From positions 28,954,001 to 29,018,000 of the forward strand of contig OZ231126.1 of the NCBI GenBank assembly GCA_965153355.1: DNA of 64,000 nt, read 5' to 3'. Source of the DNA: Flaccisagitta enflata. Taxonomy: Eukaryota. The translations under genes and the position numbers were made by a program. The notes beneath the pieces were generated by a model that searched no databases, was not told the origin of the DNA, and saw only the letters and a list, made by a program, of their open reading frames with translations. Shown here in pieces: positions 1 through 61,600 of this stretch. The stretch's first letter is position 1. Each line of letters opens with the position of its first letter.

Positions 1-3000
1 GATAACGTCTTTGTCACTTAAATCCGACGACAGCGACTCATTGCATGAATGCAAAGAAGCGTTTGATGAGTCGAGTGAAGAAATTCCGCCAAATTTGGTC
101 GCGGACTACCAGCAAGGGGAAGGCCTGAAAGTATTGAGCAAAACGCGGATTGACAATAGATCCTGCCCGATCAAAAATCGACCATTGCCGAGAACTCCCG
201 TGGTAAGAAGGGAATTTGGCTCTAGAGACGACACCTATTACGCTTACAGAGCCAAAATGGAACGAGAAACGAGCGTCCCCAGTCCACTGGCGAAGCAACC
301 AAGCAGGGACAGTGGCAGAGACAGCACCGGAAGAGACAGCAGCACTTTCGGAGACGACAACCCCTTCCATTCTACGCAATCCAACGAGACTGGAATACCT
401 TCTTCCTCGACAGGCAGTGACGCTAAGACTAGAAGAGGAGACAGTGGTGCCATGTCGGATGAGCCAGAGGACGTGCGGTTCTTTACCGAACCGGAGGAAA
501 CTTTTGAGGACCCTTACACAACTATGAACTCCGATGAAGGTGGAGACCCAGGAGTATTACATAATCCACAGGATCACCTCCCCGGACATGTTCTTTTCAG
601 CGAAGAGTCCACTTACAGCGGGGAGACCATAATAGCTTCTCGTGGCTCCATCGATAACACTTACTTGGCAGAGGACGGCGAAGTGTACAATAAACTGAAG
701 GATGACGGAAAACCCGGCAAGAAAAACTTGGAGGAATTTCTTGGAATGTATGACTGGCAGAGACCTTCAGTGCCCCCGAAAAATAGGGCCGAGTCGATTA
801 TCGCCGATTTGCCGACACCTGGAAAAGCAGACCCGGTGGTGAAACAAGATCCGTCAATAACGTATGGTAGGATCACGAGTTACCATTGTTACAGTTGAAC
901 CTCGCTCTAATGGACCCGCCAACAACAGAATTCCGCCTATAACAGATGCGACTTCATATTCCCTTGAAGTTATTTTTGTTTTCATTTCCTTTGTTGGCAA
1001 TAACAAAAGTCCATCTATAAAAAATCTGATCAGTATCTGGGTCCGCGACGGAAGGGGGTTATAGATCACCAATTCCATAAGATCGCTATGACCAAAAGAT
1101 CGCTAACCTCGTAAGTTCGCTAAAACTATAATTCTTTACATTAAGAGCCTCCATACAAAGTTTCATGCAAATCCGATGAAAAATGGCAAAGTTATGCACA
1201 TTTTTCACTTTTAGGCTAGTAGGGTGGTTGGTTGGTAAACTGGTTTGGATAAATAGTGTGCATATGTTGAGTTCTTTCATTTAGAGACTCCATACCAAGT
1301 TTCAACCAAATTGGTTGAAAAATGTCCAATTTATGCAAGTTTTTAACTTTTAGGCCGGTAAGCTGGTTGGGTGGTAGGTGGGTTTGGCTGGTTGGCATGC
1401 TCAAACATAAATAAATCACATACATGTGCTGAGTCCTTCCATTTAGAGACTCCATACCAAATTTCAACGAAATTGGTTGAAAAACGCCAAAGATATGCAC
1501 ATTTTTCACTTTTAGGCTGGTAGGCTGATTGAGTGGTAGGCTGGTTTGACAGGATAAATAGTGTACATATGTTGAGTTCTTCCATTTAGAGACTCCATAC
1601 CAAGTTTCAACCAAATTGGTTGAAAAATGTAAAAGTTATGCAAGTTTTCACTTTTGGTGGTAGGCTGGTTGGGTGGTAGGTCGGTTTGCAGTTAGCATGC
1701 TCAAATGCATATAAATCACATGTATGTTGAGTCCTTCCATTTAGAGACTCCACACCAAATTTCAACAAAATCGGTTGAAAAATGCCAAAGATATGCACAT
1801 TTTTCATTTTTAGGCTGGTAGGCTGGTTGGGTGGTAGGCTGGTTTGACAGGATAAATAGTGTGCATATGTTGAGTTCTTCCATTTAGAGACTCCATACCA
1901 AGTTTCAACCAAATCAGTTGAAAAATGACAAAGTTACGCAAGTTTTTCACTTTTAGGCCGGTTGGCTGGTTGGGTGGTAGGTCGGTTTGGCCGGTTAGCA
2001 TGCTCAAATGCATATAAATCATATACATATGTTGAGGCCTTCCATTTAGAGACTCCATACCAAATTTCAGCCAAATCGGTTGAAAAATGCCAAAGTTATG
2101 CACGTTTTTCACTTTTAGGCCGGTAGGCTGGTTGGGCCGGTTGGGTTGGTCGGATCACAAAAATCGGATAGGATGTAAAGCGCCTTACCCTAGCACAACT
2201 TCCCACCAAATATGAACCAAATCGGTCAAAGCATAAAAAAGTTATCCATTTTTTAAAATCTGTTACGACAACGACAACAACGACGACAACGACGACACCC
2301 ACCCGCCTTGAATTATAGTCCGCGTCGGAATGATATTCCGTCGCGGACAAAAAAATAAAACAGCTGGTCCCCTGAAATCCGTTAGAGCGAGGTTCGACTG
2401 AGCAAATTAGTCACGTACATTTTTACACGATCATTTGACAACCAATAATTTTTTTCGCATGAACCCTTGTCCCAAAGTTTGCGGGTATTTGTGGAAATAC
2501 TTCCAAATCCCATTGACCATTGTTCCTTGCGTCAAAACCTTAACAGGAACATCCACACTAGCGCCAGAGCCACCATCGGCACCACCGTGGCGTCTCCTTC
2601 GAAAATCGGAAACGGATAAAAACCTCGCATCCTCTCCACAAACGACCCACCAAGTTCGAGCCAGAGGCCGCAGACAATCCGAGTACGCAAGACCAACGTT
2701 CACACTCACACCACAAACGTCAGTGACGTCGACAGAACCGACATTCGACCGGCGAAGAAAACCGTCAGCGCCGACGTTGAATCCTTACGACACGATAGGA
2801 CATCAACCACCGTCATACTACGACGTGCCCTGAGGCGGATCACCCAATAGGCTTAATAGGCTTAAGCCTAGGGCCCCGCGCCTCAGGGGGGCCCCGCGCC
2901 TGCCCCCCCCTAAAAGGGAAAAAAGAAACAGGACAGTAACAAAACATAATAAGTAAAGAAAAAAAGTAAAGAATAAAGCAAGAGTAGAAGAAAAAAGAAA

Positions 3001-5807
3001 AAAAAAAAAAGATCATTAAGAATTGTGATCTGCATCAGTGTATTTGATGCTCAATGATGGTAAATAATTGCAGAGGTATTATTCAAAACAGAAACAGATC
3101 AGTAACAAAGATCTTGTATCTTTAAAAGAAAAAAAACTATATGTCAAGCTTGAATATGAATGGCATAAATGACATTATTAGCTTTGAAAACTATTTTTAG
3201 ATTTACAGCCAAAAAACTTTTTTTTCAGTTCAATCAAAACCAAATGCTGCATTTTGTTTTATGCTTTGTAATTAATTAGTGAAAGAATAATTAAATCTTT
3301 TAAATCAATAAACAGAAATATTGAATAATGTACGACAAATGTAATTGTAAAAATAGGAAAATGATATATAGGACGCCAGAGGATCTAAAAAAGAGATTGG
3401 TTGTCCACCTTCCAGTCAAGTTTAAAGCCCTGCGCTTTGTTGATCTTCTTCAAGCTGATAGGGGGGGAAGAAGGGGGGTTGGGGGGCCCCGCGCCCTAGC
3501 CAAGCCTAGGGCCCCGCGCATTGTTGATCCGCCTCAGGACGTGCCTCAAAGATGCGACTCTTGTCTTGTCGATTGTCAGTGTGCGAATGGCAATTGCCGC
3601 CACGATTGCGAATGCACCGACGGCCATTGCGGTAGCTTGGCAATAAGTGGAAATATGACGAGGCTTTCTGAAACGAAGCATCAACAACTCGACTTCGCCA
3701 AACATCCGTCGTTGATATACGACCACGTGGGAAGGGCCACGGTGACGGATGAATTGGAAACCATTGAGAAGCAACGCAGATTTTTTCTTACGGAACTTAA
3801 GAAAAGAGGTACAGTAGATCTCGTCTAGACTTGAGATGACGGGGGAGGGGGCAATGATCATAGGAAGCGAAATGAAGCTAAGGGACTGATCTAGATTACT
3901 AATTAATGAGATTCAGATCATAGACTAATAAAACAAGCCCGAGCGGGCAAATTGATGCGCCATCAGCGTGATATTTAAGGAGGCGTAACGGACGGATCGA
4001 CAGACGGACCAACCGACCGACCGACGCACACACCCTCTTATAGAGATGCGATGACGCATCTAAAAATGATTTATTCCCTATGATGGTCAGTTGCCATAGA
4101 AACGTTTCCATGTATTCTCGCTAAAACGATATTATGAGAATTTCAAAGGGAACACAGCTCAAAATCAAATTTGCTACTACTTTCCCATGATATGCTCTGT
4201 CAGAATATCGCTAGTTTTGCTGTTGCTAGGGAGCATGTCTGTGTGACAAGTATGTGAATCTCTCTAGCAACCGCTAAACCAGCGATATTCTTTCTGAACA
4301 TACTGTGGGGAACTTTTGGCAAATATGATTTTGAGCAATGTTCCCTCAAAATATTGATTCTTTAGCGAGAAAACAAGGAAAATTGTTTCCATGGTAACCA
4401 ACTATGATGGGAGTTAAATCATCCTCCTACTATTATTAATCTATGATCCAAATATCACTACTCTACGTCTCTAGCTTCATTCGTCTTTCCATAATGCTTG
4501 CTCCTATTTTCTCATATCTAGACGAGATCTATTTACTGTTAACTCCTGGCAATTACACTTCCTTTAAGTTGACTATGCCATTTCTTTATCTTTTTCTTTC
4601 CTGGTTTCACTTATTCTTTCTTTCTCTCTTTCTCTTTCTGTTGTCAGTGGAGGCCACGCAACCCTGTGTGAGGCTTGGTCCAACCAACTGTTTGTCCGTC
4701 TATCAGTCAGTCGGTCTGTTAGAAAGTGGGAGGGGTGTGGGTGGGGATTGGATCCCCCTGCCCACCCATCTGTATCACTTGGGTAATTTCAGGAGAAATC
4801 AACCAAATCAAAAAAACCCTCAAATCATAGATTTTGCTCATTTTTGGTGTACGGGTGTGCCCTGGGGAGTTATTTTAACAGGGGTGTATATAATTGAGCG
4901 GCTTTTGATTTTATTCCCCCCCCCCTGCCTTTGATTTTCTTCCCCGCGACGCGTCGCGTAACGTTACAAAATCTTTGATTTTTGTCCCCTCAAAGCTATA
5001 AAACAGTATATTTTAGGTTTTAATAGTGTTAAATTGTGTTGTAGTAATTATATTTTACCTTTTAGTACTGCCAAAAGTATTAAATCTTCAAAAATTTTCT
5101 TTTTTCTTTTTTTCAAGCTTTTGATTTTCTTCCCCATCTCCAAACCCTTTGATTTTATTACCCCCCCCACTGGGGGGGGGAATACTCAACTTTATACATG
5201 CCTGGTTATTTAAAAATCCCAAATCTTTTCGTTCTACGACCAATATTTTAGATTTTACAGGCATTTGAAATTTTTGGAATTTTGAGAATTTTAGGTATTT
5301 TGCTATGGTCTAAACGGTCATAACTCCACTTGTATACATAGGGATGAGGTGATCTTGGTATCAATCTACAAGTTTAAACCTAGAGAATGTTACGGAACAA
5401 AAATTTTATTGGAAAAATACTCATGTTTTTTTCGCCTATGCGGGGCTATTTTGAATACCCCTAGGTACCTAGTACGATCTAAGCCGGATCAACAAGGCGC
5501 GGGGCCCTAAGCTAGGCCAGGGGCGCGGGGCCCCCTAACCCCCATCTTTGCCCCCCCTGCTAACCCCCTTTTGCCCCCCCCCCTGTTTACCCAATAACTC
5601 AAAACCAGTGGATTGAAATTCTATCTAACATGCGCAACTTCCTGTCTGCCTAAAATTGACATATTTACAGAACTTAAAACAGATGAAATAACAAAATATG
5701 ACATTTCCATTACAGTTAAGTAGATCAACTTTCTCTTTTTCTTTCTTTTTTTTTTTTTTCATTCTTTCTTTCTTTCTTTCTTTCTCTTTTTTCTCTTTTT
5801 TTTTCAT

Positions 5808-5851
<44 letters not shown>

Positions 5852-7945
5852 TTTCTTTCTCTTTCTCTTTCTTTCTTTCCCCTTTTTTTTCTAAGGGTGG
5901 GTGCTGCAGGCGTGGGGCCCCCCTGAGGCGCGGGGTCCTAAGCTATAGCTTTTTAGCCTATTTATTGATCTGGCATAGAGTACGATGAAATTTGATGAAA
6001 AAATATTTGGAAAAGATTCTCTGATGTTTTTTGATTCATATCCAAAATAAAATAAAATGGCGTTTTCCTTCAAAGATCCTGAAAAAAGGGTCAAAGTGAA
6101 GTCTTTTGAGTTTTTGATATGAACAAAACAACATCAGAGAATCTTTTCCAAATATTTTTTCACTAAATTTCATCGTACTAGGTACCTAGGGGTACCTTAA
6201 ATGGCCCCACATAGGCAAAAAAACCACAGAATAAATATTTTTTCAAAAAAATTTTTGTTCTGTAACATTCTTTAAGCTAAAACTTGTAGATTGATACCAA
6301 GATCACCTCATTCCTATATATACACTTGGAGTTATGACCATTTAAACCCTTGCAAAATACCCAAAATTCTTAAAATTCCAAAAATTTCAAACGCCCGTAA
6401 TCTTAAATATTGGTAGTAGAACAAAAAGATTCGGGATTTTTAAACAACTACTCAGGGCACACCTGTACACCAAAAATGAGTAAAATCTATGATTTGAGGG
6501 TTTTATGATTTGGTTGGTTTCTCCTGAAATTACCCACCTGCTTTTCTTTGTTCCATTCATTCACCCTTTTTGGGCAGCGGCCCCAAAGGGCCGATGTCCT
6601 GTAGGACACAGGGGGGAATTTCGAGACGTCCGTCTGTCCTTCCGTCCATCCATCCGTCCGTCCATCCGTCTGTCTGTCCATCCGTCCCCCCCCTTGGCCA
6701 TCGGGGGCCTCAATTTTGCTCTTTTAGGCCTGATTTTGGCCCTCTGAGCCATCAGAATAGGCTGTATAGCCCTTTCAGACCTCAATTTAGCCCTAGAGAC
6801 CTTAAATCAGCTCTCCAGACATCATATCTGCCCTCAAGACCTCAAATCAGCCCTCCAGCCCTCAAATCCGCCCTCCAGGCCTCAAATCAGCTCCTTAGGC
6901 CTCAAATTTGTCCTGTAAGCCTCCATCCTGCCCCTAAAATCTCGAATCTGCTCTTTTGGACTAAATTCTGCCCTTCGTACTTCTCGAAATTCACCCCAGT
7001 ACAGTACAGGACTTCTCGAAATTTACCCCGGTACAGTATAGGACATCGGCCCTTTGGGGCCACTGCCCTGCTCTCACTCCACTATGTCACTTAATCACTC
7101 CAAGCAGGGCATCGGGTACCGCTGACCATGTGCGATCCTTGGATGACTAGTTGGACAGTGGCCCCCAAGGCCCCTAGGGGCCAATGACCTAGGATTGTAT
7201 ACAGAGCAATTGTTTCTCCATTTCCTGTCCCCCCCACCTCAAATCCTTCCAGAAAGGCTCCAAACCCTGCCAGAAAGGCCTCAAATCAGCCATCTCGCAC
7301 CTATGATGAACCTTCTCAAGCCTAAAATCACCTTCCCAGACCAGCCATCTCAGGCCGCAAATCATGCCTCAAAGGCCTCCAATCAGCTCTTCTAGGCAAA
7401 TTAGCCCTCTCCAGTCATGAATTAGCCTACTCAAGCCTCAAATGAGCATTCTCAAATCAGCCCGCTGACGCTCAAGCGACCTGTTCTCCATTCTGTCGCT
7501 AGTTTTCTTTTTCTTTTCCTGACTTACTAACATTCTTCCTTTCTCTTTTTCTACATCCTCTATTCTAATTTTTCTTTCTTGGGTTTACCGCCCTCACACC
7601 CAGGTTTGATCTATAAATCCTCCACCTGGCTCCTCAGCAGTGGACATCACTGACTGGATCTTCATCTACTTGCTTGAACATAACTTCCTACGAAAAAATG
7701 CGATAATTGACCACGACAAAAACTGTTCTATGAATGAATTTTTTGACATCCACCCAGGTTCGTTGCCAATGATTCGCATACCAATTTTGAACGACGTTGG
7801 AGCATCTGACTATGATGTCCCCAAAGGATGTGAAGAAACCTCTTGTCCCTGTACCGTCGCCGGTGTGGCTTTTCCCTCTCCTAAACTACCACCAAAGAAA
7901 AAGAACTCGTCAGTCCCAATACTTCCTCCCAAAAAACATATGTGA
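1..7945 (+). CDS. 3' portion of an unidentified spliced gene; Ser/Pro-rich, adaptor/docking-like protein
   Basis: Exons: <2-866 (open from window start, ends TAT G|GTAGGA, phase 1); 2547-2824 (TTAACAG| acceptor, phase 1); 3538-3808 (ends AGA G|GTACAG); probable last exon 7638-7945 (CTCCTCAG|CA GTG, phase 1, stop TGA). Recurrent YDVP/YDTI and PSVPPK/PKLPPKK/PILPPKK motifs link the pieces. Last-exon linkage is less certain. Confidence 0.65.
2..866 (+). CDS. Large coding exon of the unidentified gene (5'-truncated by window)
   Basis: About 288 open codons with non-repetitive, coding-like composition; phase-1 donor at 867. Confidence 0.75.
892..2400. mobile_element. Tc1/mariner(pogo)-type MITE with a nested Helentron-like insertion
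   Basis: TA|CAGTTGAACCTCGCTCTAA ... TTAGAGCGAGGTTCGACTG terminal inverted repeats; right-hand TA not preserved. Confidence 0.65.
1022..2348 (-). mobile_element. Helentron/DINE-1-like non-autonomous element, family A, with ~143/~160-bp alternating internal tandem repeats
   Basis: Subterminal IR GTCCGCGACGGAA at ~1041; terminal hairpin GTCCGCGTCGGAAT..ATTCCGTCGCGGAC; (ACG/ACA)n microsatellite; A-tract flanks; near-identical copy at 37795-39136. Confidence 0.75.
2547..3808 (+). CDS. Coding exon of the unidentified gene interrupted by a transposon at 2830-3537
   Basis: Removing the element and one TSD copy gives a continuous ORF ...PPSYYDVPQRCDSCLVDCQCANGNC...LKKRG. Confidence 0.7.
2830..3537. 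mobile_element. hAT-like MITE (8-bp TSD) inside a coding exon
   Basis: TIR CTGAGGCGGATCA...TGATCCGCCTCAG; TSD GACGTGCC at 2822-2829 and 3538-3545. Confidence 0.9.
4879..5204. mobile_element. hAT-like MITE (CAGG termini), same family as 51276-51581
   Basis: CAGGGGTGTATA...TATACATGCCTG; shares the CGACGCGTCGC core with the inverted copy at 51276; TSD degenerate. Confidence 0.7.
5479..5978. mobile_element. hAT-like MITE related to 2830-3537, opposite orientation
   Basis: CTAAGCCGGATCA...TGATCTGGCATAG; TSD AGTACGAT at 5471-5478 and 5979-5986; shared GGGGCCCC..CCTGAGGCGCGGG subterminal motifs. Confidence 0.85.
6567..7152 (+). mobile_element. Helentron/DINE-like element, family C (GGGCAGCGGCCCC ends)
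   Basis: TTTTGGGCAGCGGCCCCAAAGGGCCGATG start, (TCCG/TCCA)n, degenerate ~21-bp CCTCAAATC repeats, inverted subterminal copy at ~7042-7070; relatives at 55287-55545 and 56650-60690. Confidence 0.6.
7638..7945 (+). CDS. Probable terminal coding exon of the unidentified gene
   Basis: ORF VDITDWIFIY...DYDVP...PKLPPKKK...PILPPKKHM*; phase-1 acceptor at 7635-7637. Confidence 0.55.
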
Positions 7946-11244: not shown

Positions 11245-13702
11245 TCATTTCAAGAATGTTCGATACAAAAATTTCGTCTTTGAAGTTTCTTTTTCTTGTT
11301 CCAGAAGGAATAATAAGTCCCTGAGGTTTACTCGTTTAATGCGCGGTCGAAGCTGAAACGGAAGAAAAGTTGGAAAGATATGCAATTCAACTTCAACGTT
11401 TTTGCACGAATTACATGGTAATGAAAATTATATTGGTATCCTAGTCAACCCCCGCCCCAACACAATGCAGGTGAGTCCGCGGTGGGACATCTGTACATGA
11501 GAAAAGTTGAGATAATATTATCTTACCGAAGAACCAGCCGTGGACGCGGATGTGGGGTCGTTCCCTAACGCCTCGCTGTCAAATGTCGAACTGGACGTCC
11601 CACCCACCTGTGCAGATAAATTAGTTAAATATTTTGAGATGTTTTCACGACAAGATGATCGTTCACATACTATCGATTGCAAGGACAATCAAGGCCGGAT
11701 TGACGGCCACCCAACTCGCGCGCAGGTGGGCAGGGGGTATCACAAAGAAAGGCTAACCATGCACGAAAGCAGGGGCAGGACTCGTTAATGCAGAAAAAAG
11801 TGTTACGGACTGACAGATATAGTAAGACCTTAAAAGGAAGCTCGTGTCGATTTTGCTTCCATGTAACAAAAACTTTATTGCCGATTGCTTCCAAGTAACA
11901 AAAACTCGTTTGCTGATTAATAATGAATTTCTCCCGCCATCTTCCACGTCAAAAATACAACAGCAACGTCGTCATGATACCTCGTCTCCTAGTTTCGCTT
12001 TCTTCTTCCTCGGTCCGATCGCCGCCAGCGCCGTTTCGTTGGCTTCCTCGTGTCGCCTCTGTTCGGCCTCCTTTAATTGAAGTTCCTTAGCTTTTTGTTT
12101 GAGACTGAGTTGCTCTGGATCTTCCATTTTGCTCCTGCTCTTAGCCGCCTTTAATAGTCTCTCGCGCTCTTGTTCGTCTTGTCTCTCTTTTTCGAGCCGA
12201 TCCAAGTCCGATAAGAATTTCAACTGAGATTTTACATCCGTCGTTACCTCGAACCGACCGTCCGACTGTTGATGCGGCGATCGAGTGGCAAAAGGTGGCG
12301 ATCGAGTGGAAAATGAGCGGCGATCGAGAGTTGATTGAGTGGCAAATTGGAGGGGGGAGGGGCGAAGATAAGGATAGAAGCAAAAGGTGGAAAACGATCT
12401 CAACTCAAATGCTCAAATTACATTCAGATACTAGTCAGAAAGAAATACATTGTTCAGCATACCTAATGGGAGTGGTGGGATAAAATGGGCCACCCACTTT
12501 GCTCAGCCCATGTATTTATTGATGCAGAATTTTTTTTCTTACAAAATAGACACAATAAGCCTTCCTTGATTGTTACAATCGCCAGTTTTTTCCTCAGACG
12601 CTTCGTAAAAAGTTAGTGACTTTTTTTTAACCCTGTCACATTTTTTACCCCCTGTGACCCATTTTACCCCTGGTAACCCATTGCTCTCCACTCTACCCTA
12701 CATCACGATGAAATCAAAGATGGCTAAATTATGCTGATTACCCTCAAAACGTCCATTCTGTGTTCGGCGATGAGGTTTAGTCTTTCCAAGAGGTTTTTAA
12801 GGCGCTGTTGAACGGCGTAGGCGATGACTGATGAAACATCCGGCGCCACCTCGTCCACGCCGGATTCCTTGGCCAAGTCGTGAATACGCTGATAAAGAGA
12901 ACGAACCAATGGAAGTGAATGTCATTCATATATGCATTGCAATATTGTTGGTGATTGGGTTGAGAAAGAGGAAGAAGGGGGGGGGGGAGAGACGATGAGG
13001 GGGAGACGATGAGGGGGGAGAGACGAGGGGGAACAGGGGAGGGGGAAAAGAGGAGGGGACAGGAGGATGAGGGGGACAGGAGGAGGAGGGGGACAGGATG
13101 ATGCTCAAGGGGGACAGGAGGATGAGGGGACAGGAGGATGAGGGGAAAAGGAGAGGAAATAGGTGGAAGATAAGGGGAGACATCGATGAAGAGGATGAGG
13201 AGCAGAGGAAGAAGAGATAAGAGGTGAGGAGGGGAACAAAGTCAGGAGAGAAGAACAGTGAGATACAATGCGGCGCGGCTGAACAAGAAAAAATTGTACA
13301 GGTTTTCCCTCAAATCTATGAAACAATCTAAAAAGACTTTTGAGCCTATGCTGGAGATTGAGGTACTGTCCCAACGCGCCGAGAAGGCCTCAGCATACAC
13401 GTACCTTGAGCAAGGGTGTGGCGCTCACGAGATCGGGTGAGTCCGAATACGACTCGATTTCTTTGGTTGACCGAATTCTCGTTCCGATCAAGTCCGCCTG
13501 TTGCCGAGGGTGGGAAGGTTTGCGCGAAAAAAATGTTAGTGGAAAATAACAATGCTGTCGGGGGCCGATGAATGATAATGAGAGCACATAACCGTGAGAT
13601 CAATAAACGCTAGTCTGTACCTGAGATGCAAGAATACGGGCGTTCTCTTCGTTGAGATTCACGCCACCCATCGCCGCCACATCATTGATGTCGTCGTCCT
13701 CT
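11245..13702 (-). CDS. TAF4: TAF4 C-terminal exons (histone fold and conserved C-terminal domain)
   Basis: DDDINDVAAMGGVNLNEENARIL; AYAVQQRLKNLLERL; QLKFLSDLDRLEKERQDEQERERLLKAAKSRSKMEDPEQ; RVNLRDLLFLLEQE. Confidence 0.95.
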
Positions 13703-55600: not shown

Positions 55601-58600
55601 GATCCAAAATCCTGTAACTTTACTTTTTTCAAACAAGGCCAACACCTAACACCCCTGACATAATTAGGCGAACTGGGAACATATGCCCTAGAGGGTGAAA
55701 TATTGGCCCAAGCTCTGCAAGATTTGACATAGAGATAGCTAACATGTCATACTTTAACATAGTAGAGCAACATACGGGGATTATTCACTGGAAGAAGGGT
55801 GAGAAGGTGATAATTCAGAAATGGCAAATCAGATTGTGACGGATTTTCCCAGAAATATTTTTACAAAAAGATGGCACAACCCTACAGCTGTTTTTCGCAG
55901 CCTATACCCAAGTTTTTTGGCATTTGATGGCAAAAAACTCATTCTGTAGATAAAAATAAGGAAGGAGGTCAAAGAAATGGGCAGGGGCAGCCCTTGAGGC
56001 TAAAAAAATGTGCAATAAGAAACTTGGTAATAATGGACAAAGTGGAACTGTCCTTTATCAGAGAATGGCTATGAAATAGGATTTCAACCTATTCTTTTTG
56101 GTAAGTTTGGCTGAACTCGGACGGAATTTACCTTGGTCCATATGTACATATCCCAAAGTACCATTTAAATCACTTTGTCAGGCTCAAAAACATGAAATTT
56201 AACCCCAGTTCGCCCAATTTTGTCAGGGGTGTTATAAGTCGCGTGTGAGACATAAATAACTTAAGATGACTTTTATTGACTCAAGATGACTTAAAATGAC
56301 TCAAGATGACTTAAAATGACTCAAGACAACTTTAAATGACTTAAAAAGACCTAAAATGAATGAAATGACTACTTTGACTTATTTGACTTAAGTGACTTGA
56401 AATGACTTGAAATGACTTGAAATGACTTGAAATGACTTGAAATGACTTGAAATGACTTGAAATGACTTGAAATGACTTGAAATGACTTGAAATGACTTAG
56501 AATGACTTAGAATGACTTAGAATGACTTAGAATGACTTAGAATGACTTAGAAAAACTTAGAATGACTTAGAATAACTTAGAATGACTTAGATTGACTTAG
56601 ATTGACTTAGAATAACTTAGATTGACTAGAATTAACTTAAAGTATAATAAAATAGTCGCAAAAGCGTTAGATGGTCAGCGGTACCCGTTGCCCCTATGTG
56701 AGTGTATGTGTGGGAGAGGTGGTTAGAGGGGCAGCGGCCCCGAAGGGGCCGATGACCTACAGTACCGGAATCAAAGAACTGGTGATAAGGAGGGAAGCCA
56801 TATCTCTCCAATTACAAGGATATGAGATCTGAAATTTTTCTGTGGTGTGCACCTATAGTACCCCCACCCCCCGTAAGGGTTTGGAGCTGTTCCGGGCATT
56901 TTTTGTTTTTGGTTGTCAAAATTTTTTTATTTCTTAAAATCACTATTGTGGGCCAAAAAATTTGTTTCAAGATTTTATTTTTATGTTACATGTAGTCAAT
57001 ACCCAGAGCTACAAATTTCATTTTTTGAAAAATATTTTTGGCCAATTTTTAAGAGAATGGCACTGAAAAAAACAAAATTTCAAAAAAATGAAAAATCGCT
57101 ATATTTTCTAAAATAATTGGCTTAGCATGATGATTTTTGGCATGGAAGTAGTCCTGAGAACCATCCATGTGTATGCAAAATTTCAACTCCCATACTTGAA
57201 TTTTAAAGGAGTTATGGGATTTTGAAATTTTGATAATTTTTGGTAAAAAACATTTTTTCTTATAAATTTTTTTTTTGTGAACCATTTTTCATGAAATTTC
57301 ATAGACAAACATGGTAATTGATATTTTTTTGCTTCCAAAAAAAATTTGGGCACTGCAACCCCTTAAGAAAATTTTTTTTTCTAAAAAATTGCTAAAATTG
57401 GCTATTTTTCTAGGTTGAATAAAAACTGTTCCTGTTATCCGATCAACTTCATTTTTGGAGGGATTATCAACCCACATCTGCAGTAACTATGTTTCAAATT
57501 TCAAGTAAATCGGATAATTCGTTCCGGAGATATTCAAGTTCAAAGTGGAAAGGGCAAGCTAAAATCACTGTTTCTGTGGTATTTTAATGATAAGTCTTTA
57601 TTGGCGGTTAGCTACAAGTGTCTCAAAAAGGTAACCTCCAAAATTGTTGCAAATAGGTGTGGTATATGTTAATGCAGCGTAACCAACCAACATTTTTTGA
57701 TTTCACAGTCTTTAAAAAAATAGGCACCAAAAACCTGCAAAAAATGCCTTTTTTGGCATTTTTTGCCACATTTTTGGGGTATAATGCATATCAAACGACA
57801 TCCCCATCCCCAAATTTTTTGTGGCATAGTGGTCCATGATAGGACAGATGTCCCCCCCAAAAATTATAAATTTCCGTCACGTTTAAGCACAAAAATTTTG
57901 GTCTAAAATGGCAAAAAATGCAGTTTTTTTAATTTTTTAAGCAGTTTTTGGGGTGTAATGCATATTAAAAGACATCCCCATCCCCAAACTTTTTGTGGCA
58001 TAGTAGTCCATGATAGGACAGATCTCATCCAAAAAATTTATTCATTTCCGTCACACTTTAAGCACAAAAAATTTGGGGATGTGGATGTTGTTAAGTATGC
58101 GTTACACCCCAAAAACAGCTTTAAAGAATTCAAAAAATCGCATTTTTTGCCGTTTGAAACTATAATTTTTGTGCTTAAAGCATGACGGAAATGAATAAAT
58201 TTTGGGGGGGACATCTGTCCTATCATGGACTACTATGCCTCAAAAAGTTTGGTGATGGGGATGTCGTTTAATATGCATTACACCACAAAAACAGCTTAAA
58301 TAATTCAAAAATTGCATTTTTTGCCATTTTAAACTAAAATTTTTTGTGCTTAAAGCGTGATGGAAATGAATGAATTTTTGGGGGGACATCTGTCCTATCA
58401 TGGACTACTAAGCCACAAAAAATTTGGGGATGGGGATGTCGTTTGATATGCATTACACCCCAAAAACAGCTTTAAAAATTCAAAAAATTGCATTTTTTGC
58501 CATTTTAAACCAAAATTTTTGTGCTTAAAGCGTGACAGAAATGAATAAATTTTTGGGGGGACATCTGTCCTATTATGGACTACTATGCCACAAAAAATTT

Positions 58601-61600
58601 GGGGATGGGGATGTCGTTTGATATGCATTACACCCCAAAAACAGCTTAAATAATTCAAAAATTGCATTTTTTGCTATTTTAAACCAAAATTTTTGTGCTT
58701 AAAGTGTGATGGAAATGAATAAATTTTTGGGGGGACATCTGTCCTATCATGGACTACTAAGCCACAAAAAATTTGGGGATGGGGATGTCGTTTGATATGC
58801 ATTACACCTCAAAAACAGCTTAAATAATTCAAAAATTGCCTTTTTTGCCATTATAAACCAAAATTTTTGTGCTTAAAGTGTAATGGAAATGGATAAATTT
58901 TTGGGGGGACATCTGTCCTATCATGGACTACTAAGCCACAAAAGATTTGGGGATGGGGATGTTGTTTGATATGCATTACACCCCAAAAACAGCTTAAAAA
59001 ATTCAAAAAATTGCATTTTTTGCCATTTTAAACCAAAATTTTTGTGCTTAAAGCATGACGGAAATGAATAACTTTTGGGGGGGACATCTGTCCTATCATG
59101 GACTACTATGCCACAAAAAATTTGGGGATGGGGATGTTGTTTGATATGCATTACACCCCAAAAATGTGGCAAAAACTGCCAAAAAAGGTTTTTTTTGCAG
59201 TTTTTTGGTGCCTATTTTTTTAGAGACTGTGATCCAAAAATGTTGGTTGGTTGTGCTGCAGGGACATATTCCACACCTATTTGCAACAATTTTGGAGTGA
59301 CTTTATTCATATTGATTAAACGTTACCTTTTTGAGACACTTGTAGCTAACCGTCAATAAAGACATACCATTAAGATACCACCGAAACAGTGATTTTAGCT
59401 CGCCCTTTCCACTTTGAACTAGAATATCTCCGGAACGAATTATCCGATTCACTTGAAATTTGAAACATAGTTATTGCAGATATAGGTTGATAATCCCTCC
59501 AAAAATGAAGTTGATCGGATAACAGGAACAGTTTTTATTCAACCTAGAAAAATAGCCAATTTTAGCATTTTTTTAGAAAAAAAAATTTTCTTAAGGGGTC
59601 GCAGTGCCCAAATTTTTTTTGGAAGCAAAAAGATATCAATTACTTTGTTTGCCTATGAAATTTCATGAAAAATGGTTCACAAAAAAAAAATTTATAAGAA
59701 AAAATGTTTTTTACCAAAAATTATCAAAATTTCAAAATCCCATAACTCCTTTAAAATTCAAGTATGGGAGTTGAAATTTTGCATACACATGGATGGTTCT
59801 CAGGACTACTTTCATGCCAAAAATTATCATGCAAAGCCAAGTATTTTAGAAAATATAGCAATTTTTCATTTTTTTGAAATTTTGGTTTTTTTAGTGCCAT
59901 TCCCTTAAAAATTGGCCAAAAATATTTTTCAAAAAATGAAATTTGTAGCTCTGGGTATTGACTACATGTAACATAAAAATAAAATTTTGAAACAAATTTT
60001 TTGGCCTACAATAGTGATTTTAAGAAATAAGAAATTTTTGACAACCAAAAACAAAAAATGCCCGGAACAGCTCCAAACCCTTACGGGGGGTGGGGGTACT
60101 ATAGGTGCACACCACAGAAAAATTTCAGATCTCATATCCTTGTAATTGGAGAGATATGGCTTCCCTCCTTATCACCAGTTCTTTGATTCCGGTACTGTAT
60201 GCTGTTATTATTTGAGCCTCAAGGCTGGGATTAGGGCCTGGAGGCTGGAATTTAGGCCTCCGGACCGGGATTTGATTCTCGAGGCTGGGATTTGAGCTTC
60301 AAGGCTGGGATTTGAGCTTCAAGGCTGGGATTTGAGCCTCGAGGCTAGGTTTTGGGCCTCGAGGCTGGGATTTGAGCCTCAAGACTGGGATTGGAGCCTC
60401 AAGGCTGGGAATTGAGCCTTGAGGCTGGGATTTGAGCCTTGAGGCTGGGATTTGAGCTTCAAGGCTGGGATTTGAGCCTCGAGGCTGGGATTTGAGCCTC
60501 GAGGCTGGGTTTTGAGCCTCGAGGTTGGGTTTCGAGCCTCGAGGCTGGGATTTGAGCCTCGAGGTTAGAATTTGGGCGGGGGGGGGGGGACGGAGAAGAA
60601 GAAGGAGAAGAAGGAGAAGGAGGAGAAGGAGAAAGTTTCCCATATGTGTGAAAGCATAGGTCATCGGCCCCTTCGGGGCCGCTGCCCAAAAGTAGTGTAA
60701 TGGACCAACGGACCAACAAAGCGGGTTGTTGAGTCGCTTGCACTCGACTGAAAACTTGGACTCAGTTGAAATTTTCGAGTCTAAGTCTACTACTCTGTAC
60801 GTTTGCTGCTTTTTGCATAATTATCTCAAATTTGTCTGATTTTCATCTAAAATCTGTCTAAAATTAATCTTTTTTCTCTTTCAAGCTGACGATGAGAAAA
60901 CTCCAGCCGAGCCAACGACAAATCATGTGAATGGAGAAGCAGAAACTCCCAAGGAGAACGCCAACGATGAGGTAAGATTGGGTACAAGCGTTTCACAATT
61001 GGTCGTCGTTACTTCTAAACGTTAAAGGTTCTAGTTAAGATTTTTTTTTCTTTTCGTTCTCTTTCTCTTTCTCTCTTTCTCTCTTTCTCTCTTTCTCTGC
61101 TCGAGCGTCTGCAATTATTGCGTGACATTTCTATCATTGAGTAATCGACGTGAAAATTCATCATTTCAGGGTGAAGCTGTTGTGGAAGGCACTGATATCG
61201 AGAATGAAGAGCTTCACGACGGAAGCGACGTGAACGGCGATGATGAAGAGGAAGAAGATCCCTTCTACAACAAAACGCGAAGTTTCTTTGACAATATCTC
61301 ATGCGAGGCAACGGAGCGTCTCAAAGGAGGGTAAGTTTGATGTGGGCTTATCCCACTTCTACTCTCTCTGCCACTTGTCTGTTGATTAAACCGGCTGTTT
61401 GTTCTTATCAACTTTGAACCTGCCCTTTGCTTCAATCTCATCCCTTCACCTTGCTACAAATTTTCATTTATTCTCCGTAATCCATCTTTCCAAATGCTCG
61501 TTCATTCTCCATTTTCCTTTCCCCTCCCTACCATTCCCAACTTCCCATCCCATCCCATCCCATCCCCGCCACTTTTCCATCCCTGCCACTGTTCTATCCC

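Follow-up and report, generated by a model that had tools for sequence, protein, structure and literature searches.

The stretch of DNA described here (the window: 64,000 nucleotides of contig OZ231126.1, positions 28,954,001 to 29,018,000 of the forward strand, from the Flaccisagitta enflata assembly GCA_965153355.1) carries near its start a conserved protein-coding gene whose middle exon is interrupted by a 708-bp DNA transposon resembling a miniature inverted-repeat transposable element (MITE). Evidence from outside the window came from a second sample of the same organism (X2; contigs taken to be DNA), a marine metagenome (X3), metatranscriptome contigs (X5), and raw poly-A RNA reads from the same organism (X23, of which about 6% of the run was read). 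The gene lies on the forward strand. Exon A (2..866) is open at the window start and ends at the donor ATG|GTAGGA at 867, based on an RNA contig (X5 record 16, covering 1-846), the reading of the frame and donor, and homology to protein P0013 (E = 1e-46). Exon B (2547-3808) is split by the transposon into an upstream part (2547..2821), which follows the acceptor ...TTAACAG|G, and a downstream part (3538..3808), which ends at the donor GAG|GTACAG at 3809; both parts are covered by X5 record 19, and the downstream part also has homologues in other species. Exon C (7758..7945) is the last coding exon, with its stop codon at 7943-7945 followed by the 3' untranslated region, and is backed by X5 records 19 and 21 and by homology to the C terminus of protein P0014 (E = 3e-11). 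The introns that flank exon B (867-2546 and 3809-7757) are both GT-AG according to RNA or reading-frame evidence. X5 record 19, a 660-nt contig, runs unbroken over 2546-2821, 3538-3806, and 7756-7861, and the frame is open through exons A, B, and C to the stop only when the element and one copy of its target are removed. The insertion is thus flanked by a real, transcribed, and conserved coding exon.

The element occupies 2830-3537 on the forward strand and, by direct reading of the sequence, is bounded by perfect terminal inverted repeats (TIRs) and an 8-bp target-site duplication (TSD). The left TIR CTGAGGCGGATCA (2830..2842) and the right TIR TGATCCGCCTCAG (3525..3537) are 13 nt long and 100% complementary, and the TSD GACGTGCC stands at 2822..2829 and again at 3538..3545. 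A repeat finder reported arms of 14 nt (2829-2842 and 3525-3538), which are the 13-nt TIRs plus the pairing TSD-flank bases C2829 and G3538. Between 2810 and 3550 the order of the sequence is TAC TAC GAC GTG CC|C TGA GGCGGATCA ... TGATCCGCCTCAG|GACGTGCC, followed by TCA AAG, such that the upstream frame reads Y Y D V P and then meets a premature TGA at 2831-2833, whereas the frame from 3538 is open as far as the exon end. The terminal 100 bp of the element are GC-rich (62-64% GC) around an AT-rich, low-complexity core (27% GC), which together with the TIRs and TSD marks it as a MITE-like, non-autonomous DNA transposon. In the gene frame the element holds 13 stops, and its longest open reading frame (ORF) encodes at most about 70 amino acids, a size outside the range of the Pfam scan described below.

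This anatomy is real and not a product of chance. A perfect 13-bp inverted repeat within 3 kb with a flanking 8-bp direct repeat arose in none of 50 Markov simulations of the window. The real window has five perfect 13-nt inverted-repeat pairs with an 8-nt flanking direct repeat, one of which is the element, three of which lie in an inverted duplication at 56.8-60.2 kb, and one of which lies in a small inverted repeat at 5985-6175. Allowing up to two mismatches, the TIR motif occurs 5 times where 0.77 occurrences are expected, a count reached in 0 of 100 shuffles. The initial annotation had described a 708-bp transposon with perfect TIRs and an 8-bp TSD in an open coding exon, with an immediate stop and a stop-free remainder of the exon downstream, and each of these readings holds. 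Separately, the element contains a TIR-like site, GTGATCTGCATCAG, at 3025-3038 with 86% complementarity to the left TIR. The element's first ~209 bp (2830-3038) therefore resemble a shorter MITE in their own right, pointing to a possibly composite or internally rearranged element.

The exon without the element is present in other samples. In X2, a 746-bp contig (record 2, depth 167) joins 2373-2821 directly to 3538-3831 and lacks exactly 716 nt, the length of the element plus one TSD copy; because it includes 174 nt of upstream-intron and 23 nt of downstream-intron sequence, this contig is genomic. Three slightly different 217-amino-acid genomic ORFs (P0003, P0008, and P0009), found on 5 public metagenome contigs, have the length of the window ORF running from 2459 (ATG) to 3828 (stop) minus exactly 716 nt. 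All three carry intron-derived residues at their start and end and read ...PPSYYDVPQRCDSC... (YYDVPQRC) across the site. The intact allele, with the peptide YYDVPQR that the initial annotation had suggested looking for, is thereby found in other genomes that match both flanks with a single TSD copy. One X3 contig (record 11) terminates exactly at 2821. The filled site is seen in the window alone: a query with the chimeric ORF that spans element and exon (3325-3825) returned only the empty-site cluster, with 1 match among 104 candidates.

The window allele seems to be intact apart from the insertion: its exon A shows 97% identity to another allele without gaps, and its exon B, left of the insertion, shows 98% identity to the empty-site ORF, which fits a young event. 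The window and the other runs show 7 exonic differences, 5 of them synonymous, in keeping with a real coding exon. We conclude that the insertion is recent and polymorphic and that the uninterrupted exon is carried and expressed by other individuals and populations. Divergence between the X2 empty-site contig and the window is uneven, with 11 letters and 5 gaps differing in the 449 nt to the left of the insertion and no letters differing in the 294 nt to its right; this abrupt change at the insertion point may reflect recombination history or a mosaic assembly.

Expression of the uninterrupted exon is documented by X5 record 19, the sole RNA contig across the site, which skips 716 nt. Owing to the TSD, this cut can be placed in nine equivalent ways (GA..AG, AC..GG, CG..GA, GT..AC, TG..CG, GC..GT, CC..TG, CC..GC, and CT..CC), none of which has GT..AG, GC..AG, or AT..AC ends; the skip therefore cannot be a canonical intron. 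The same contig shares the letters of X2 and X3, not those of the window, at 2558, 2588, 2635, 2689, 2695, and 2704 (6 of the 7 exonic variants), and it is the only X5 contig at those variant positions. As it carries the variants of the empty haplotype, and as the 716-nt-shorter form is present as DNA, it is mRNA of the uninterrupted haplotype.

The insertion falls inside a conserved protein motif. The 95 residues that follow the insertion served as query of an exhaustive HMMER search (cutoff E ≤ 0.001), which returned five proteins: P0003 (217 amino acids, 100% identical), the homologues P0004 (E = 3.6e-07), P0006 (E = 2.1e-05), and P0007 (E = 8.6e-04) from other organisms, and P0005 (463 amino acids). 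The last was left out of the alignment as an unrelated repeat protein with a match confined to query residues 24-64. P0007 is a fragment of P0013 (595 amino acids), the protein whose N-terminal half matches exon A, and P0014 is an 841-amino-acid relative that matches exon C with its C terminus. Around the insertion point, the S, Y, D, and P of the motif S-x-Y-D-x-P are invariant in all five alignment rows, which amount to four independent sequences given that P0007 is part of P0013. Since the TSD (GAC GTG CC) encodes the D-V-P of this motif, the element sits within it. Exon B also holds conserved Cys-rich and K-D-P-S-L-V-Y-D blocks in the alignment.

Less can be said about the identity of the protein. 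Pfam returned no family for exon A, P0001, the exon C ORF, P0003, P0013, or P0014 and only a subthreshold metallothionein match for P0002, and a word-based search for homologues of exon A among longer proteins was negative. For the first 260 residues of P0014, the protein Atlas gave leads below 0.9 only (PH domain, syntrophin, and DOK-type docking proteins), and the term adaptor-like for the encoded, disordered protein is for that reason a lead only. Exon C holds a second Y-D-V-P followed by a Cys-rich stretch (SDYDVPKGCEETSCPC, 7800-7830), parallel to the YYDVPQRCDSC of exon B (2816-2830), and both Y-D-V-P motifs are present in P0014; this is a repeated tyrosine motif of a putatively adaptor-like protein without a Pfam family.

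The element belongs to a family with many members. BLAST of the element against the window identified a second, diverged copy of 500 bp on the reverse strand at 5479..5978, inside the intron 3809-7757. It is flanked by its own 8-bp TSD (ATCGTACT, at 5471-5478 and 5979-5986), and its TIRs (CTATGCCAGATCA and CTAAGCCGGATCA) match that of the 708-bp element at 11 of 13 positions. The two copies resemble each other over their 5'-terminal ~95 nt and 3'-terminal ~85 nt, where paired GGGCCCCGCGCC motifs occur, and have unrelated AT-rich cores, which is the usual pattern of MITEs. Both end in AG at the TIR, and the TSD length is fixed at 8 bp in both. A 190-bp inverted repeat (approximate length; 5985-6175), MITE-like in appearance and with arms of ~45 nt, adjoins the TSD of the second copy and may be a nested or adjacent insertion.

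Summed contig depth, which is a rough guide and not a copy number, reaches 13,764 in X2 in a bin wholly inside the element compared with 130-230 in single-copy bins (~80x), and 117 compared with 3-7 in X3. These values point to many near-identical copies (at least 95% identity) in the genome. A third insertion site is documented by an X5 contig that enters the element at 2830 from another, AT-rich flank (...TTTAGATT). JGI metagenome contigs scanned twice with patterns from the conserved 3' end gave 0 matches, and Pfam detected no transposase among 28 of the window's 50 ORFs of at least 130 amino acids. TSDs of 8 bp are typical of hAT elements, whose TIRs begin with a YARNG-type consensus. The 8-bp TSD here fits this superfamily and suggests hAT membership, but the TIR start CTGAG does not fit its consensus.

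Other features of the window include a neighboring gene on the opposite strand, of which an exon at 11975-12412 encodes a TAF4 domain (a TFIID subunit; Pfam PF05236, E = 3.6e-26). Within the introns of the interrupted gene, repeats at 900-2400, 3900-4200, 4800-5400, and 6300-7200 have very high summed depth (10^5-10^6 in X2), and the block at 900-2400 is a tandem array of related units with long spurious reverse-strand ORFs. The inverted duplication at 56758-60199 has 878-nt arms (56758-57635 and 59322-60199) of 97% identity that enclose an array of ~190-340-nt inverted and tandem units, and it is foldback-like in look.

We consider it likely that the locus carries a recent, segregating, and truncating MITE insertion. 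Under this explanation, a high-copy and recently active non-autonomous cut-and-paste element (13-bp TIR and 8-bp TSD) would have entered the middle exon of this conserved gene on the assembled haplotype, splitting the codons of S-x-Y-D-x-P and introducing a TGA three codons into the duplicated target. Should the mRNA keep the element, ~150 C-terminal residues (90 encoded by exon B and 62 by exon C) would be missing from the predicted protein, and nonsense-mediated decay would probably act on the transcript. Polymorphism at the site is evident from the uninterrupted exon that other individuals and populations carry and express. Whereas the transposon anatomy, the exon, the empty-site DNA, and the mRNA of the empty haplotype are shown, truncation of the insertion allele's product without rescue by splicing is an inference.

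The initial annotation had instead favored a nascent introner, in which the GT of the left TSD (2825-2826) and the CAG that closes the right TIR (3535-3537) serve as splice sites, 713 nt (2825-3537) are removed, and the protein reads YYDDVPQR. On that view the allele would be a just-born, still polymorphic intron. The dinucleotides are present and well placed, and several observations weigh against a purely truncating allele. In silico, the proposed removal keeps the frame and adds 3 nt (one Asp) relative to the empty site. In its context, the acceptor (CATTGTTGATCCGCCTCAG|G) is comparable to the gene's real acceptors, and the gene's own donors likewise match the consensus only moderately, which keeps a weak donor from being decisive. 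TIRs end in AG in both copies in the window, and GT stands at TSD positions 4-5 in two of the three insertion sites (GACGTGCC and ATCGTACT). No RNA of a carrier of the insertion was seen: in the portion of X23 that was read, depth is zero on each of the three exons, a result that neither shows nor refutes splicing. The junction 2824^3538 was absent among the 15 best-supported of 193 joints in the runs compared, which leaves room for a rare 713-nt joint in the contig runs. Finally, the label of X2 as DNA is a guess, and the genomic nature of its empty-site contig rests on the intron sequence that it contains. The X23 reads that fell on the 9-kb stretch searched (529 reads) were all partial fits on repeats and none were on exons; they were confined to the repeats at 3901-4200 and 6301-6600.

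Published introners lend this proposal a precedent. Passages of PMC9860276 and section 5 of PMC11282704 describe introner families that bring the 3' splice site with them and recruit a 5' site from the TSD, include a family with 8-bp TSDs that adds codons, and note an enrichment of introners in aquatic organisms.

Nevertheless, we regard a nascent intron as improbable. The splice sites of the element are supplied at the dinucleotide level only. The proposed donor GAC|GTGCCC, already called weak in the initial annotation, matches 2 of the 7 flanking positions of the MAG|GTRAGT consensus, compared with 4 of 7 and 3 of 7 for the gene's two real donors, and it is without G at -1 and without A or G at +4 and +5, whereas both real donors have G at -1. 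RNA folding predicts pairing of the left TSD and TIR with their right-hand counterparts (minimum free energy of -200.3 kcal/mol, z = -4.9, with 0 of 20 shuffles folding as well), such that both candidate splice sites would be buried in the TIR stem. The extra Asp would give Y-D-D-V-P and alter the spacing of the otherwise invariant Y-D-x-P. A GT at TSD position 1, 4, or 7 is expected in about 3/16 (~19%) of random 8-mers by our arithmetic, and because any insertion of this family would bring a terminal AG, the in-frame spliceability of this one is a weak coincidence. The flank of the third copy lacks the GT, and copy 2 lies within an older 3.9-kb intron without forming its borders. The only joined RNA is the empty-haplotype form, with 716 nt absent in place of 713. 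The earlier proposal of a recent intron gain thus stands as far as a recent insertion is concerned and is not supported as to the intron, and its fallback, a truncating allele, is the better reading.

A broader form of the same idea would extend it to the whole family as a young introner-type MITE that presents CAG at its 3' end in either orientation, whose 8-bp target would often have to supply GT at position 4, and whose splicing would leave 3 additional nucleotides whatever the phase. The window allele would then be a still-polymorphic intron in a marine eukaryote whose introns are otherwise of the ordinary GT-AG kind, a scenario that we hold to be quite improbable.

Rescue of the reading frame by some other splice form is very unlikely. 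Without the element, exon B measures 546 nt (275 plus 271), a multiple of 3, and the last base of exon A, like that of exon B, is the first of a codon; a direct join of A to C would therefore keep the frame. Alternatively, an upstream cryptic donor at GT 2654 or 2723 joined to 3538 through the TIR acceptor would give in-frame deletions of 168 or 99 nt, and a shortened protein would result in either case. However, neither form appears in the RNA data compared, the cryptic donors are weak, and skipping would cost 182 residues, the conserved Cys-rich and K-D-P-S-L-V-Y-D blocks among them. That the insertion is not germ line at all, being an assembly chimera or an event acquired somatically or in culture by the sequenced material, would accord with a filled site known from the window only and with the outcome of the chimeric query but is extremely unlikely given that the perfect 8-bp TSD and perfect TIRs are the signature of real transposition and not of misassembly, although somatic and germ line insertions are inseparable by these data.

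Compared with known systems, the truncating insertion most resembles MITE insertion polymorphisms, with which it shares TIRs, a TSD, small size without coding capacity, many copies, conserved ends around a variable core, and a presence/absence pattern with an intact empty site. It differs in combining a hAT-like 8-bp TSD with a CTGAG TIR start and in having no transposase partner in the 28 of 50 long window ORFs that were scanned. In maize, Ds and dSpm alleles are known in which transposons are spliced from exons as ad hoc introns. A further example of this kind is Evelknievel in exon 13 of the Arabidopsis CMT1 gene (PMC6238269). Like the element described here, these are exonic insertions that splice sites within or close to the element ends might partly rescue; those cases rest on RNA evidence, whereas the present element is known from DNA.

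The introners of Fig. 2B of Gozashti et al. 2022 (PMC9860276) are likewise DNA transposons with TIRs and TSDs that have AG at the element end and GT in the TSD. As depicted there, however, they are demonstrated introns in many genes and have a 4-bp TSD, whereas the TSD here is 8 bp and none of the three insertion sites known is a demonstrated intron. The Aureococcus introners of Fig. 2F-G in the same article (PMC9860276) are closer in TSD length, at 8 bp, and their splicing also leaves extra codons, adding 12 nt (4 amino acids) to the mRNA where the present element would add 3 nt and one Asp. According to that figure they own both splice sites and are spliced, whereas the element here supplies only the AG and would place its extra residue in an invariant motif.

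A last comparison is with MITE-derived, non-canonical introns in Fritillaria borealis and with nonconventional introns in euglenids, as presented in section 6 of PMC11282704. As in these systems, pairing of the TIRs draws the ends of the present element together in its predicted fold, and precise excision of the element plus one TSD at the RNA level would mimic the 716-nt skip. We rejected this source for the skip: the two introns of this gene are GT-AG, and the 716-nt-shorter form stands as DNA with intron flanks and the variants of the other haplotype, so RNA-level excision need not be invoked.

Taken on these terms, the event is an ordinary one of a known kind; introner status of the element is not shown, and the locus is only a modest candidate for a nascent intron. 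What it offers is a segregating loss-of-function or truncating allele from an active MITE family and thereby a marker of recent transposon activity. It also serves as a warning, since the reference haplotype carries a broken copy of the gene. The empty and filled alleles are both now defined, and if it is true that carriers splice the element, the locus would provide a segregating exonic transposon with a usable GT...AG, an intermediate of the introner model that is rarely observed.

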